NCBI RefSeq assembly: GCF_024298765.1
Contig: NZ_CP101210.1
Reading direction: 5' to 3' (one strand)
Length of the DNA stretch: 64,000 bases
Source of the DNA: Escherichia coli
GTDB lineage: Bacteria > Pseudomonadota > Gammaproteobacteria > Enterobacterales > Enterobacteriaceae
Positions 20,210 through 27,272 of the stretch are shown here, one piece after another. The translations under genes and the position numbers were made by a program. A model generated the notes under the pieces. It worked only from the letters and a program-made list of their open reading frames with translations. It searched no databases and was not told where the DNA came from. Each line of letters starts with the position of its first letter. Position 1 is the stretch's first letter.

Positions 20210-20662
20210 TTAATGTTGCGGTTTATATCGCATATAAAAATTAGTAAACCACGTTCCCCGGCATTCAACGCGCTGCTGCTTAACTGTCTGAAAACCATAA
20301 CGTTCAAAAAAGGGTTTTGCGGTTATGCTGGCGTCCACCGTAAGTTCGGATTCAGACTTAATCAATGGTTTTAACAAAGCGCTGGCAACTCCGCGTCGGG
20401 TGTATTCCGGTTCAACAAATAACATATCGATATAATGTCCAATGCGGGTAATAAAACCAACCGGTTGTGCATTAATAACTGCAACCCGCACTTGTGATTT
20501 CGCGAGTTTCTCCTTCCAGCGAGATTCGTCAATCTGCGCCCAGGCGGCAATTTGCTGTGGAGAATAGTGCTGACTCGCCGTCATCGTAACAGCTCGAAGG
20601 AAAATAGCGCATAGTTGCTGAAAATCACCAGGCTGATAGTTTCTTATTTGTATGTTATTCAT
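20210..20662 (-). CDS. yafP: GNAT acetyltransferase YafP
   Basis: 150-aa translation matches YafP. Overlaps the dinB stop by 4 bp. Confidence 0.85.
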
Positions 20663-21714
20663 AATCCCAGCACCAGTTGTCTTTCCATTTGAGGGTCAAG
20701 CAACGTCACATGCAGCCCCACCAGTCGCACACCGCGCCCGCCGCGACGTTCATCCCAGGTTTTACGCGCGGTGGCGATTAGATCAGCTTTATTCAGCCGC
20801 GGCCAGACGTGCTCCTGAGTAGTTTGCTGAAAATCGTCGAACTTTAATTTCACCCCCTGGCGAGCAATCAGTAAATCAGGTTTTACCTTTGCCAGACGGC
20901 GTTCAAGTTCAGGATACAGCCGCTCAATAATCGCTTCACATTCAGACCAGTGATGAATATCTTCCGCCATCGTGCGTTCCACGCCGACGGATTTTCGCAA
21001 CCGTTCACTGTTAACGTCGCGCTCGTCAATCCCCTGACTACGCTCCCACAAAATGCGGCCAAATTTGCCAAAGCGTTTAAGCAGAATCACCAGATCACAC
21101 TTTTGCACATCACCGCAGGTCCGCAGCCCCATCGCTTCCAGTTTTGCCGCCGAGACTTTGCCGACGCCGGGAATTTTTGCCAGCGGTAAGGTTTGCAGAA
21201 ATGCCGGAACTTCTGCCGGCGTAATCACAAACTGACCGTTGGGTTTATTCATGTCGGAAGCAATTTTGGCGAGAAACTTGACCGGCGCAACGCCCGCAGA
21301 CGCCGTCAGTTGCAGCTCGTTGAAGATCGTCTGGCGGATTTCCTGGGCGATGAGGGTCGCAGAACCGTGGCAATGGACGCTATCGGTGACATCGAGATAG
21401 GCTTCATCCAGTGATAACGGTTCAATGCGCGAGGTATAGCGCGAGAAAATTTCGCGGATATGATTTGAGGCTTCTTTGTAGGCGTCAAAGCGCCCTGGAA
21501 GCAAGGTGAGATGCGGGCATAATTTGAGCGCCATCCCTGTCGGCATAGCGCTACGTACGCCAAATTTACGCGCGGGATAATTGGCGGTGCTGATCACCCC
21601 CCGTCGTTCGCGGCTGCCGCCAATAGCAATAGGGATATCGCGCAGGGCGGGATTATCGCGCATCTCCACCGCTGCGAAAAAGCAGTCCATATCCACATGA
21701 ATGATTTTACGCAT
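20659..21714 (-). CDS. dinB: DNA polymerase IV
   Basis: 351-aa translation ([33 protein letters not shown]...) matches DinB. Confidence 0.95.
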
Positions 21715-21729
21715 TGCTCACCTCTCAAC

Positions 21730-21745
21730 ACTGGTAAAGTATACA
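21730..21745 (-). promoter_or_regulatory. LexA (SOS) box of dinB
   Basis: Reverse complement reads CTGTATACTTTACCAG, fitting CTGT-N8-ACAG-type SOS box consensus, 16 bp upstream of the dinB start. Confidence 0.75.
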
Positions 21746-21784
21746 GTAATTTCAGGGGTTGAGAAATGCGTAAAGATTCAGCAT

Positions 21785-22565
21785 TTAACGCGCTCGCTGC
21801 GAAAGCACCTGCTGCTTATCCAGCTTTTGCACCAGCGGCTGCACCACTTTATCCCCATGCTGACCAAAGTATTGATACAGCGTATCGGACGCACTTTTGG
21901 TCAGCACCATAATCTCAATGCGCCGGTTGCCCGCGCTTTGCGGATTTTTGGCATCCAGCAACATCTGGTCCGCCATTGCGCTTACCTGCATCACTTTATC
22001 TTCCGGCATTCCGGCCTCTTCCAGCACCCGACGAGCCGAAAGCGCGCGATCGCCCGAAAGGTTCCAGTTGTTGTAGATATTGTTTTTGTAGGCCATCGCA
22101 TCGGTATGCCCGGTAATAATAATTTTGTTATCGAGAGAGTCGAACACCGGCGCAAGCTCCACCAGCAGCGTTTTAAAGAACGGCATAATCTTCGCGCTGC
22201 CGCGTTCAAACATATTGCGGTTCTGGTCGTCTTTAATCAGCACGCGTAATCCCTGGGGAACAATCTCCATCTCCAGATTCGCTTCCATATGCGCATCACG
22301 GGCGATGGTATTGATACTGGTTGCCAGCTCGCCAAGCTCGGTGGCGGATTTCTTCTTCAGCAGCGCCGTTTTCTCGTTGACGTCGCGCGCTTTTTTCTCC
22401 GTCTCTTCCGGCACCGCCACGGTGGCAGGTTTTGGCGGATGAGACGGGCTGATTTTATTTAACGGCGACAGCCCGCCACCATTGAAAATCGACTGCCCGT
22501 GCAGCGCGGCGATAATGCTTTCACGCTCGGATTTACTGACGCTGTTGACAATCAACTTTATCGTC
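21785..22565 (-). pseudogene. lafU: lafU' (MotB-like Flag-2 motor protein), N-terminally truncated
   Basis: OmpA/MotB C-terminal domain present (IIITGHTDAMAY...NWNLSGDRALSARRVLEEAGM...NRRIEIMVL) but no N-terminal transmembrane segment. Abuts the lfhA fragment. Confidence 0.7.
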
Positions 22566-22568
22566 GTC

Positions 22569-24545: not shown

Positions 24546-25287
24546 CCGTCAAAATCCGTCGCGCGCCTAAAAAATGGTCCTGCCAGAAAGGTTCGGCTAA
24601 CCGACTTACCCGAATGGTTTCCCCGGTGCGCGGTGACTCGATAAACTGACCGTCTCCAAGATATACGCCCATATGGTCGGCTATCTCACGACTGTGGATA
24701 TGGAAAAACAGCAAATCTCCCCGGCGCAGGTCGTTATTCGCCACAATCGTTGCCCGACGGTAGTGGTACATCTCATTGGCCGTGCGCGGGAGCTTAGCCT
24801 CAAGGATCTTGTTGTAGGCATAAAAAACCAACCCGCTACAGTCGAAGCCTTTATCAGGCCGCGTGCCCCCCCAGATATAAGGCTTACCTAGCTGCTGCTC
24901 CAGGCGGTGAATCGCCACTTCGGTGATGTTATGTAGATGGTCGCTGCTTAAGAAATGATTATTCTCCACCAACGCCTGCCAGCGTCTGTCACTCGCCTTG
25001 AGCGGCGCAGGAAACCATTCTGGATGCTGTTTTATCTGCTCCCGATTATGCTGGCGCAGCGCCCTTCTGCTTTTGGCATTGCCTTCCACAATATAGCTGG
25101 CCTGCTTTTTCAGATGGGTTTGGTACTGTTTTAATAAACGCGCACGGTTTTGCATCCGCTGGCGGGCGGCGTAGCTAAAAGAGATATGTGATGTGGTGGC
25201 GCTGGCGAGTAAAGGGAGCAAAACGCATAACGAAAACACGCCTGGATGCAGAAATCTGCCGTGCAAGAACGAAGACATGAAGGACAT
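24529..25287 (-). CDS. yafL: NlpC/P60-family lipoprotein peptidase YafL
   Basis: 252-aa ORF with signal peptide and NlpC/P60 motifs (DCSGLV...H...GVYLGDGQFIE). Confidence 0.85.
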   Translation of the reverse strand: MSFMSSFLHGRFLHPGVFSLCVLLPLLASATTSHISFSYAARQRMQNRARLLKQYQTHLKKQASYIVEGNAKSRRALRQHNREQIKQHPEWFPAPLKASDRRWQALVENNHFLSSDHLHNITEVAIHRLEQQLGKPYIWGGTRPDKGFDCSGLVFYAYNKILEAKLPRTANEMYHYRRATIVANNDLRRGDLLFFHIHSREIADHMGVYLGDGQFIESPRTGETIRVSRLAEPFWQDHFLGARRILTEETIL

Positions 25288-25589
25288 AAACCAGCTGAAT
25301 GAAGGTGAGAATTTTAAAAGACCGGAGGAGTAAACGGGATTATTAATTGCTTATTTGCATATTACTATTGCGGTTTCATAATCTTAGGAAATAAGAAATA
25401 AATCTACAATCCATGCGCTTTTCGGACTCTTGAAAACTGCCCCTGTGCTAAATTTGTAAACCCTGCGCCGACAGGCTTGCGTAAAACTCTTTTGGTGATA
25501 ATGTGAGCCTTCCAAATCCAGACTATTCCGATTTGGGATTCATTTTGCCGTCCTGGCGTGTGTAACCGTTTTATCAAGGAATAAGCAGT

Positions 25590-26330
25590 ATGCGTAAAAT
25601 CGCATTAATTCTTGCGATGTTGTTGATCCCGTGCGTTTCGTTTGCCGGTTTGCTGGGCAGCAGTAGCTCGACCACGCCAGTGAGCAAAGAGTATAAGCAG
25701 CAGTTGATGGGATCCCCTGTCTACATCCAGATCTTCAAGGAAGAACGTACGCTCGATCTCTACGTCAAAATGGGCGAGCAATATCAACTGCTCGACAGCT
25801 ATAAAATCTGTAAATATTCCGGCGGATTAGGGCCAAAACAGCGTCAGGGCGATTTCAAAAGCCCGGAAGGGTTTTATAGCGTCCAGCGTAATCAGTTAAA
25901 ACCAGACAGCCGTTACTACAAAGCGATTAATATTGGATTCCCAAACGCCTATGACCGTGCGCATGGTTATGAAGGGAAATACCTGATGATTCACGGCGAT
26001 TGTGTTTCCATCGGCTGCTACGCGATGACCAATCAGGGTATTGATGAGATCTTCCAGTTCGTTACTGGTGCGCTGGTGTTTGGTCAGCCGAGCGTGCAAG
26101 TGAGTATTTACCCGTTCCGTATGACCGACGCCAATATGAAGCGCCATAAATATTCCAACTTTAAGGACTTCTGGGAGCAACTGAAGCCGGGCTACGACTA
26201 CTTTGAGCAAACCCGTAAGCCACCGACCGTTTCTGTGGTCAATGGCCGTTACGTGGTCAGCAAGCCGTTAAGCCACGAAGTTGTGCAGCCACAACTGGCA
26301 TCAAACTACACGCTCCCCGAGGAAAAATAA
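25590..26330 (+). CDS. yafK: L,D-transpeptidase-like periplasmic protein YafK
   Basis: 246-aa ORF with signal peptide and YkuD-like domain ([14 protein letters not shown]). Matches YafK. Confidence 0.85.
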
Positions 26331-27068
26331 GCGCCATTCACCTGGCATAATCTTTTGCCAGGTTTCATTGCCCGTCAGCGGCTGTGTCGCAATCACCGTG
26401 ACCACATCATTCGGTGTGGTCTGCGAGCTGAAGTCGATTTCCACATCCTGATCCAGCAACGTTGCCACGCCAAACGGCGCGCGGCGGGTGATCCAGTGTA
26501 AATTAGTCGAGCAATACGCCATTACATAGCGCCCGTCAGAAAGCAGCATGTTGAAAACGCCCTTCTGCCGCAGTTCATCCGCCAGTGAGGCGATATATTT
26601 AAACACTGCCGCCATGTTGCCCGGTGTGCGCGGGTAACGCTGCGTTAATTTATGCAGGAGCCAGCAAAAGGCTTTTTCGCTATCGGTTTCACCGACCGGG
26701 CGGAAGTTGCCGGTTTCCAGTGATTTGTAGCCCGTCAGTTGTCCATTATGGGCATAAGTCCAGTTACGCCCCCATAACTCGCGGGTAAACGGGTGAGTAT
26801 TTTCCAGCGCCACCTCGCCCCGATTAGCCTGGCGAATATGAGCCACCACCGAACAGGATTTTATCGGGTAGTCCTGGACAAGTTTGGCGATGGGGGAATT
26901 AAAGCTGGGTTGCGGATCTTTAAATGTGCGACAGCCTTTACCTTCGTAAAAGGTAATGCCCCAGCCATCTTTATGTGGCCCGGTTCCACCACCACGCTGT
27001 ACAAGTCCGGTGAAACTAAAGCAGATATCGGTAGGGACGTTGGCGCTCATCCCGAGCAATTCGCACAT
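26301..27068 (-). CDS. yafJ: class II glutamine amidotransferase YafJ
   Basis: Translation from [11 protein letters not shown] with N-terminal Cys nucleophile. Matches YafJ. Confidence 0.85.
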
Positions 27069-27099
27069 GGGTAACCTCCACAACAGCGGGAGCGCATGG

Positions 27100-27272
27100 C
27101 CCCCGGCGAAGATTGATTTAAGAATTTTCAGGTCGGATGTGGCGTGAACGCATTATTCGGCCTACGGTTCGGGTGCAGATTGTAGGCATGATAAGACGCG
27201 TCAGCGTCGCATCAGGCATCAGAGCACAAATGCCGGATGCGGCGTAAACGCCTTATCTGGCCTACGCCAGAC
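27100..27272. repeat. REP/BIME element
   Basis: GGCGTGAACGCATTATTCGGCCTAC, GCATGATAAGACGCG and GCCGGATGCGGCGTAAACGCCTTATCTGGCCTAC motifs between yafJ and gmhA. Confidence 0.8.

Follow-up and report, generated by a model that had tools for sequence, protein, structure and literature searches.

Three modules of Escherichia coli K-12 absent from a B2/ST73-type chromosomal segment: ordinary polymorphisms with probably different histories

Does the lack of genes carried by Escherichia coli K-12 mean that K-12 gained them or that another lineage lost them? A 64-kb stretch of E. coli DNA (hereafter the window; features in Table 1) raises this question three times within 5 kb, as the original prediction read in it a conserved backbone without the K-12 accessory modules yafN-yafO, rayT, and dinJ-yafQ. 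"Missing relative to K-12" is not equivalent to "gained by K-12": one of these absences appears to be ancestral and two appear to be secondary losses (only probably so for yafNO), K-12 simply being a strain that carries all three modules. The prediction had left the choice between later insertions and lineage-specific loss, a hedge that covers the truth, but the sites do not share a single history. We consider it probable that the window is an ordinary B2/ST73-type segment of E. coli, displaying one combination of three independent, known polymorphisms with the histories proposed below for each site; the direction and molecular mechanism of each event are inferred from the observed structures, junctions, population frequencies, and outgroup states.

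Table 1 Features of the window between yafP and yafJ (positions in the window; a dot marks features without strand)
Feature	Position	Strand	Basis
yafP, GNAT N-acetyltransferase, second gene of the two-gene dinB-yafP operon	20210..20662	-	ORF; RefSeq annotation of identical strain; Pfam Acetyltransf_10 E = 1.9e-19
dinB, DNA polymerase IV	20659..21714	-	ORF; annotation of identical strain
ATTATGA heptamer, single copy (TCATAAT on +), includes dinB stop/yafP start ATGA	20659..20665	-	comparison with K-12 and L004
lafU, distal end of the deleted Flag-2 lateral-flagella cluster	21785..22570	-	annotation; collinear with K-12 across the scar
lfhA (fhiA) fragment, other end of the Flag-2 deletion	22536..24254	+	annotated "incomplete; missing N-terminus"
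Three tandem 99-bp BIME units (six REPs), REPtron remnant without rayT/tnpAREP	24254..24531	.	repeat search; Rfam; K-12 and NU14 alignments
yafL, NlpC/P60 peptidase, putatively ancestral-type signal peptide	24529..25278	-	Pfam NLPC_P60 E = 9e-33; N-terminus comparison
235-bp putatively ancestral-type segment, yafL 5' end and part of yafL-yafK spacer	25215..25449	.	no similarity to K-12; stands for 830 bp of K-12
yafK/dpaA, flank of the dinJ-yafQ site	25590..26330	+	ORF; annotation of identical strain
yafJ, end of the interval originally described	26301..27068	-	annotation of identical strain

The window is 100% identical to strain Nissle 1917 across 10 kb, a B2 strain generally assigned, like CFT073, to the ST73 lineage (phylogroup labels of all sampled strains are general strain assignments and not placements in a tree). 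Alignment and the annotation of this identical strain show the K-12 backbone in inverted orientation, and the K-12 gene order assumed in the prediction was correct on comparison with K-12 (fadE-gmhA-yafJ-yafK(dpaA)-yafQ-dinJ-yafL-rayT-lfhA'-lafU'-dinB-yafN-yafO-yafP-ykfJ'-prfH'-pepD). Nor are the missing modules hidden as small ORFs, i.e., tblastn of K-12 YafN, YafO, RayT, DinJ, and YafQ found no homologue in the 64-kb window (best E = 0.37), and the spacer ORFs gave no Pfam match. The K-12 proteins themselves matched Pfam families (YafN and YafO, PF02604 and PF13957; DinJ and YafQ, PF04221 and PF15738).

The description of these genes as K-12 accessory modules absent from a conserved backbone did not hold, as the species as a whole is polymorphic for each of them, with two or three states, and each occurs in 52-66% of the 5,426 complete E. 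coli genomes. The yafNO module was found in 2,847 of these (52%) and an empty dinB-yafP junction, matched in one piece, in 2,566 (47%), compared with the two-gene form in 40-50% of strains in Gutierrez 2011 (NAR 39:4192, PMC3105422); rayT was present in 3,575 (66%), compared with tnpAREP in 74/110 strains (67%) in Ton-Hoang 2012 (NAR 40:3596, PMC3333891); the K-12-type dinJ-yafQ segment was recovered from 3,340 (62%) and the window-type 235-bp segment from 2,084. All eight presence/absence combinations of the three modules occur in a spread sample of 59 chromosomes, in which joint states were decoded from query coordinates and frequencies are therefore approximate, and the K-12 haplotype with all three modules makes up ~31% of genomes. 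As such differences between lineages are common and already published, the absences of yafNO, rayT, and dinJ-yafQ are correct but ordinary: two of them, plus the distribution of the third, have been described before. YafQ is prevalent in phylogroups A, B1, and F, and YafO has low prevalence in B1, C, G, ST131, and ST73 (Singh 2023, mBio, PMC10790755); among these phylogroup-variable toxin-antitoxin modules the window, matching an ST73 strain, is without both. From published work, such a strain would have a translationally coupled two-gene dinB-yafP SOS operon, lack the SOS-linked toxins YafO and YafQ, and be without RAYT for REP/BIME mobilisation. The value of the locus lies mainly in careful annotation and as a teaching example, and it offers no discovery.

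The first site is that of rayT. From the lfhA stop (24254) to the yafL stop (24529) there is, as predicted, only a three-unit BIME array, and the 585 bp of K-12 that include rayT are missing. Rfam naRNA4/REP matches cover 24254-24331, 24354-24430, and 24453-24529, two of them exceeding the gathering score, and Rfam returned no known sRNA in the interval beyond this REP-derived naRNA4. Since the BIME arrays of a REPtron are present in the yafL-lfhA spacer and the Y1 (HUH) transposase gene, rayT/tnpAREP, is absent (best E = 0.99 for RayT in the window), the site is a REPtron remnant and not a REPtron. The Flag-2 cluster, whose deletion left the neighbouring lafU and lfhA ends, is whole in EC958 and O111:H8.

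The rayT gene lies between lfhA and yafL in E. albertii, E1V33, MOD1-EC7003, and SCPM-O-B-8794, and was not found in Citrobacter carrying lfhA-yafL. Between K-12 and NU14 it is 93.0% identical, with lfhA at 93.8% and yafL at 92.6%, i.e., rayT alleles appear to have diverged together with their flanks, and the flanks of the rayT-positive NU14 are 99.9% and 98.6% identical to those of the window. In NU14 the gene is bracketed by ~50-bp direct REP repeats (~90% identical), and the K-12 alignment likewise shows flanking direct REPs. A search for a scar in the window found REPs alone, which fits a repeat-mediated deletion without proving it. Judging from these alignments, the absence of rayT in this lineage would be a secondary loss between directly repeated REPs: entry of rayT (tnpAREP) into the yafL-lfhA spacer would predate the diversification of Escherichia, and the gene would then have been lost here by recombination between the flanking direct REP/BIME copies, or by RayT-mediated excision, leaving an uninterrupted BIME array. 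CFT073 is the published example of a "precisely excised" tnpAREP/rayT, with the same conclusion of loss and no difference from the window, where BIMEs are likewise kept and the transposase gene is gone (Ton-Hoang 2012). What is added here is that the exact ~50-bp direct REPs of NU14, the closest rayT-positive haplotype, would yield the window array. It is possible, though not our preferred route, that the gene removed itself, RayT/TnpAREP cutting and rejoining the flanking REPs without host homologous recombination: TnpAREP cleaves and recombines BIMEs in vitro, the CFT073 state was termed a "precise excision" (Ton-Hoang 2012), and the junction falls within REP sequence. However, direct repeats of this length and identity are sufficient for deletion through RecA or slippage, the locus varies in BIME copy number anyway, and host recombination and RayT catalysis would give an identical product, so that the two mechanisms are indistinguishable. 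The B1 alternative described in the same paper, hicAB replacing the REPtron, was seen here in SE11.

At the dinB-yafP junction the predicted 4-bp overlap is the ATGA at 20659-20662, shared by the dinB stop and the yafP start with nothing between them, and the 752 bp of K-12 with yafN-yafO are missing; for the PhdYeFM-type antitoxin and YafO_toxin genes of this module, the best tblastn match in the window is the E = 0.37 given above. In four-gene strains (K-12, L004) yafN-yafO is bracketed on both sides by ATTATGA, and the single copy in the window thus marks the junction, or "scar", of the missing module. Finding once the 7-bp repeat that occupied sites have twice fits a repeat-mediated deletion without proving it. 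The window is structurally identical to the two-gene operon with ATGA fusion, lacking yafN-yafO, published for CFT073 (Gutierrez 2011), and the junction repeat given here is longer than the ATGA described in that paper. Outside Escherichia, dinB is directly followed by yafP in every genus sampled, save for one Pseudocitrobacter, and the two-gene form thus appears to be the ancestral state across the family, whereas Gutierrez 2011, using only E. fergusonii, which has the four-gene form, placed the four-gene state as ancestral for Escherichia (E. fergusonii is missing from our outgroup scan and its state is taken from two papers). The four-gene form is also present in the divergent Escherichia L004.

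We consider that yafNO was probably lost secondarily in this lineage, between the ATTATGA repeats. The module would occupy the dinB-yafP gap in part of the species and would have been removed here via recombination or slippage between the two flanking heptamers, so that the stop of dinB and the start of yafP would merge into ATGA and a translationally coupled two-gene SOS operon would be restored. The family-wide two-gene state and the low synonymous divergence of yafNO also fit an old allele retained in this lineage that never had the module, with yafNO recombining horizontally into the ATTATGA site. We regard this alternative as rather unlikely. In its favor, besides the ancestral two-gene form, K-12 and NU14 differ by 8 synonymous changes in yafN and yafO, a divergence roughly 3-4 times below that of dinB and yafP (dS ~0.18-0.23), and yafNO stands at the same junction in Pseudocitrobacter vendiensis and in neither of its two congeners, which shows that the module moves between genomes. 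Yet the four-gene form occurs in both E. fergusonii and L004, and within B2 the flanks of the two forms are almost identical right up to the junction, the four-gene NU14 and the two-gene window sharing ~99% identity over 450 bp towards yafP and 150 bp towards dinB. Moreover, the NU14 yafNO differs by 2% from all other sampled alleles, and exact deletion across a pair of 7-bp repeats asks for a simpler mechanism than repeated insertion at the same point. Other genera also lack the ATGA overlap, their dinB stop codon being followed by a short spacer before the ATG of yafP, which makes the E. coli fusion look like the outcome of a repeat-mediated event. Escherichia was rejected as donor of the Pseudocitrobacter vendiensis module, since the dinB and yafP genes on either side belong to Pseudocitrobacter itself. 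Separately, divergence from other B2 strains is raised over ~500 bp within dinB of the window (about 20810-21310).

The third site differs in kind. The gap of about 300 bp noted between yafL and yafK measures 311 bp between the starts at 25278 (the yafL start annotated by RefSeq in the identical strain) and 25590, and no homologue of the RelB-family antitoxin and YafQ_toxin genes that lie between yafK and yafL in K-12 was found in the window; a hidden gene in this spacer was rejected, its three small ORFs having no Pfam match and the spacer being less conserved with respect to other Escherichia lineages (79-84% identity) than the adjacent yafK (94-97%). As 235 bp of the window stand where K-12 has 830 bp, the difference is a replacement and not a simple indel, and the replaced part covers the first 64 nt of yafL. 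Neither breakpoint shows repeats or microhomology. Identity of the 235 bp with E. albertii, E1V33, and L004 is 79-84%. The YafL N-terminus (MSSFLHGRFLHPGVFSLCVLLPLLASA... in the window, MSLPSIPSFVLSGLLLICLPFSSFASA... in K-12), compared with those of E. albertii, E1V33, SCPM-O-B-8794, and Citrobacter, matches E. albertii and E1V33, as well as L004, and resembles Citrobacter. These likenesses indicate that dinJ-yafQ was apparently never acquired here, the window site being ancestral and K-12 the derived replacement. The yafL 5' end and the yafL-yafK spacer of the window would thus be the retained ancestral ones, and the 830-bp replacement in K-12 and 62% of E. coli would have introduced dinJ-yafQ along with another promoter and signal-peptide region for yafL.

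The replacement would have spread between lineages via homologous recombination. The K-12-type segment has unchanged boundaries in ST648 and MOD1-EC7003 and is 95.7-100% identical in all matching records except three. In Escherichia sp. MOD1-EC7003 the module is 98.7% identical to that of K-12, with the adjacent yafL at 89%, and the two strains show 5 synonymous differences in dinJ and yafQ and 23 in yafK; the replacement thus seems to have crossed a species boundary. That dinJ-yafQ was instead ancestral in E. coli and deleted from this lineage is very improbable, even though the module occurs in F, E, A, and B1 strains among the genomes that carry it and in one non-coli Escherichia. Deleting the module could not regenerate a yafL 5' end and spacer that are homologous to those of E. 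albertii, E1V33, and L004 and resemble those of Citrobacter. The window-type segment is of long standing within E. coli and varied there, falling into classes at 100%, about 93%, and about 89% identity, and the K-12-type is nearly uniform bar the three records, even across the species boundary. Unlike Singh 2023, which gives prevalence alone, the comparison here resolves the junction anatomy, an 830-bp replacement that takes in the signal-peptide region of yafL. It is conceivable, if doubtful, that the arrival of dinJ-yafQ was an allelic replacement swapping the yafL promoter and signal-peptide 5' end, with two putative YafL export variants segregating with the module, a linkage of which we found no description in the literature examined on these modules. 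If true, dinJ-yafQ could be maintained partly via its effect on yafL expression or export. The search for an origin of the K-12-type yafL upstream region gave, besides a faint in-frame likeness to Phytobacter, only 48 bp that match the corresponding region of Citrobacter amalonaticus at 81%.

That the window is a pristine backbone, into which all three modules were inserted later in the K-12 (phylogroup A) lineage, is scarcely credible: other Enterobacteriaceae do as a rule have the two-gene dinB-yafP, and Citrobacter is without rayT and dinJ-yafQ at these sites, but each module is spread over phylogroups A, B1, B2, E, and F, yafNO reaches L004 and E. fergusonii (PMC3105422), and rayT is found in four non-coli or divergent Escherichia lineages, E. 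albertii among them, where its alleles have diverged in step with the sequences beside them. The 7-10% allelic divergence of rayT excludes recent transfer of all its non-K-12 copies and contradicts this scenario for that gene.

The turnover of toxin-antitoxin genes (yafNO, dinJ-yafQ, and, in B1 strains, hicAB) makes this region a small hotspot. It also shows unusually deep allelic divergence.

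Three small K-12 modules are missing from the window: the yafN-yafO pair (yafNO), the REP-associated transposase gene rayT (tnpAREP) and the dinJ-yafQ pair. A whole-locus alignment with K-12, the check proposed in the original prediction, gave exact boundaries at all three sites and, together with the finding that the entire 64-kb window holds no homologues of YafN, YafO, RayT, DinJ or YafQ, fully confirms the predicted absences. The K-12 gene order on which it relied was also correct: the MG1655 record has yafN-yafO between dinB and yafP, rayT between yafL and lfhA, and dinJ-yafQ between yafK and yafL. 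The small ORFs between yafL and yafK gave no hit in Pfam. The absences are correct as observed, and their biology is already known.

Positions 18000-30000 are 100% identical to many sequenced strains, and a comparison with Nissle 1917 over 18000-28000 gave no mismatch in 10,001 bp. Nissle 1917 is a B2/ST73 strain, and CFT073, the published example of both the two-gene form (dinB-yafP) and the excised tnpAREP, is generally placed in the same lineage. Gene order was derived from an ORF list and the RefSeq annotation of a strain identical to the window.

Features of the pepD-fadE region (window coordinates)
Feature	Position	Strand
pepD	16756-18213	+
prfH	18270-18884	-
rtcB-family gene	18881-20020	-
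yafP	20210-20662	-
dinB	20659-21714	-
lafU	21785-22570	-
lfhA fragment	22536-24254	+
BIME array	24254-24531	
yafL	24529-25278	-
yafK/dpaA	25590-26330	+
yafJ	26301-27068	-
gmhA, fadE	past 27100	

A single further BIME/REP unit lies between yafJ and gmhA (27185-27262; Rfam naRNA4, 74.5 bits). At 18796-19813 the window keeps prfH and the rtcB-family RNA ligase gene intact; K-12 has lost 1,018 bp here, and only pseudogenes, ykfJ and prfH, are left. A fourth small K-12 extra, not listed in the original prediction, is a 129-bp element between yafP and ykfJ (15335-15463 of the K-12 locus, L001) that is absent from the window at 20037/20038. By comparison with the consensus, this element (…CACCCCAGTCACTTACTTATGTAAGCTCCTGG…) looks like an ERIC/IRU repeat; similar copies occur in Citrobacter loci at other positions.

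Across 5,426 complete E. coli genomes, the dinB/yafP site carries yafNO in 2,847 and the fused junction in one piece in 2,566, and the yafL/yafK site holds the K-12-type dinJ-yafQ segment in 3,340 and the window-type 235 bp in 2,084. As each pair adds up to approximately all genomes, these are clean allelic alternatives. rayT is present, as a single copy at the yafL/lfhA site, in 3,575 genomes. Combinations were read from query coordinates and coverage in 59 evenly spaced chromosomes, supplemented by fetched example loci, and all eight possible ones were seen, e.g., all three modules (K-12), only dinJ-yafQ lacking (NU14), only rayT lacking (ST648), dinJ-yafQ present without yafNO and with hicAB replacing rayT (SE11), and none of the three (the window, like Nissle 1917). 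None of the modules is therefore peculiar to K-12, and they assort independently. Within the 59 chromosomes, where frequencies are approximate, the K-12 haplotype with all three modules accounts for ca. 31% and the window haplotype lacking all of them for roughly 2-7%. In the ST648 locus (L085), yafQ, dinB and yafP are each annotated as frameshifted (3800-4077, 7937-8993 and 9749-10202), which may be real decay or may stem from sequencing errors, the assembly being an older one.

The original prediction read the absences, in hedged terms, as later insertions or lineage-specific loss. This is partly supported, but the three sites differ from one another in their histories, as judged from an outgroup scan (one genome per species, anchored on YafK, genes mapped by tblastn).

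At the yafL-lfhA spacer, K-12 has 585 bp carrying rayT with direct REP copies on both sides, and the window has, as predicted, a three-unit array, i.e., three 99-bp BIME units matching the REP-derived Rfam family naRNA4. In NU14, the rayT-positive strain nearest to the window, direct repeats of ca. 50 bp surround rayT, and by sequence comparison recombination between them would yield the BIME unit that lies nearest to yafL in the window. The lfhA-yafL spacer also harbors rayT in E. albertii, Escherichia sp. E1V33, Escherichia sp. MOD1-EC7003 and the divergent "E. coli" SCPM-O-B-8794; tblastn mapping did not find it in Citrobacter species in which lfhA adjoins yafL. Between K-12 and NU14, rayT (93.0% identity) is as diverged as lfhA (93.8%) and yafL (92.6%), and the NU14 flanks are nearly identical to those of the window (yafL 99.9%, lfhA 98.6%). 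The gene has therefore long occupied this site, and its loss in the window lineage was recent. In agreement, a survey of 110 strains reported tnpAREP in 74, always at one site flanked by yafL and fhiA; B2 strains, CFT073 among them, showed "precise excision" with the BIMEs retained, B1 strains had hicAB instead, and an early gain, possibly before the E. albertii split, followed by losses was proposed (Ton-Hoang et al. 2012, PMC3333891).

In B1 strains such as SE11 (locus L087, 6390-7017, equivalent to window ~24254-24531) a hicA-hicB toxin-antitoxin pair replaces both rayT and the BIMEs, as already reported by Ton-Hoang et al. The spacer can thus hold rayT, hicAB or BIMEs alone. The scar of the Flag-2 lateral-flagella deletion at the lafU/lfhA junction (22482-22675) aligns collinearly across the window (B2/ST73), NU14 and K-12; EC958 and O111:H8, which we take to be ST131 (also B2) and B1, keep the full cluster. 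One Flag-2 deletion allele seems to be common to distant phylogroups. The yafP-dinB-lfhA-rayT-yafL block (20210-25300) shows unusually high divergence between phylogroups, with dS of ~0.18-0.31, compared with ~0.10 for neighboring yafK, and yafL is only 92.7% identical between the window and K-12; such divergence suggests old alleles or repeated imports.

The dinJ-yafQ site is a replacement: the window has 235 bp (25215-25449) where K-12 has 830 bp, and the two sequences are dissimilar. Its breakpoints show no repeats or microhomology, and the left one falls inside the signal-peptide coding region of yafL, so the YafL N-termini differ between alleles. dinJ-yafQ is absent from E. albertii, E1V33, SCPM-O-B-8794 and every other genus sampled (one genome per species). 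The first three carry segments 79-84% identical to the window's 235 bp and the same type of YafL N-terminus, which is also similar to that of Citrobacter. The K-12 segment has unchanged boundaries wherever found; in MOD1-EC7003 it is 98.7% identical to K-12, compared with only 89% for the adjacent yafL, and dinJ plus yafQ hold 5 synonymous differences against 23 in yafK. At this site the window is therefore in the ancestral state, and K-12 carries a derived replacement that probably spread by recombination.

The direction of change is less clear for yafNO. Here K-12 has an additional 752 bp, and an ATTATGA heptamer brackets yafNO in K-12 and SCPM-O-B-8794 (L004), one copy containing the dinB stop and the other the yafP start. 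The single copy in the window (20659-20665) produces the predicted 4-bp overlap, ATGA. dinB is followed by yafP within a few bases in Klebsiella, Raoultella, Kluyvera, Pseudocitrobacter and some Citrobacter, thus the two-gene form is ancestral for the family, and synonymous divergence is lower in yafNO than in the flanking genes. Both observations would fit an old two-gene allele retained in the window, which we nevertheless consider rather unlikely. The four-gene form (dinB-yafN-yafO-yafP) is present in SCPM-O-B-8794 by tblastn mapping and in E. fergusonii (Gutierrez et al. 2011, PMC3105422), four-gene NU14 and the window (both B2) are ~99% identical on either side as far as the junction itself, and the other genera lack the ATGA fusion, a short spacer lying between the dinB stop codon and the ATG of yafP. 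For these reasons, we favor a repeat-mediated secondary deletion in the window lineage, as proposed by Gutierrez et al., who found dinB-yafP alone and ATGA-fused in 40-50% of E. coli (e.g., CFT073) and inferred recurrent yafNO loss.

Elsewhere, E. coli genomes with and without a RAYT gene have been contrasted (Park et al. 2021, PMC8049555), and YafQ and YafO prevalence has been given by phylogroup, with YafO low in ST73 (Singh et al. 2023, PMC10790755). Our results reproduce the published ones with ca. 50 times more genomes and add details only: a repeat length of 7 bp instead of 4 bp, the exact REP copies involved, the dinJ-yafQ allele as a replacement, and the two-gene dinB-yafP form as ancestral for the family. 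Judging by the locus anatomy and the papers cited, the strain would express dinB-yafP as a two-gene operon from the dinB promoter with overlapping stop and start; YafP is produced from this arrangement (Gutierrez et al. 2011, PMC3105422). It would also have no REP-associated transposase, and published comparisons disagree on how far this lowers REP numbers (PMC8049555, PMC3333891); and, lacking dinJ-yafQ and yafNO, would miss two ribosome-dependent mRNA interferase toxins.

Pseudocitrobacter vendiensis (L059, 1418-2109) carries yafN-yafO, with 80% and 85% amino-acid identity to the K-12 proteins, precisely at the dinB/yafP junction, and two congeners (L056, L057) do not; thus, the four-gene arrangement is polymorphic in at least two genera. 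The dinB and yafP of P. vendiensis are native to the genus, and identity to congeners falls within ~50-200 bp of the junction. E. albertii NBRC 107761 (L005, 1-2983) has no dinB or yafP homologue beside lafU in the available 3 kb, and its locus may be rearranged on the dinB side. Within the dinB of the window, a ~500-bp patch (~20810-21310) holds ~30 of 36 differences from other B2 strains (NU14, EC958), to which yafP-dinB is otherwise nearly identical; it looks like a short recombination tract.
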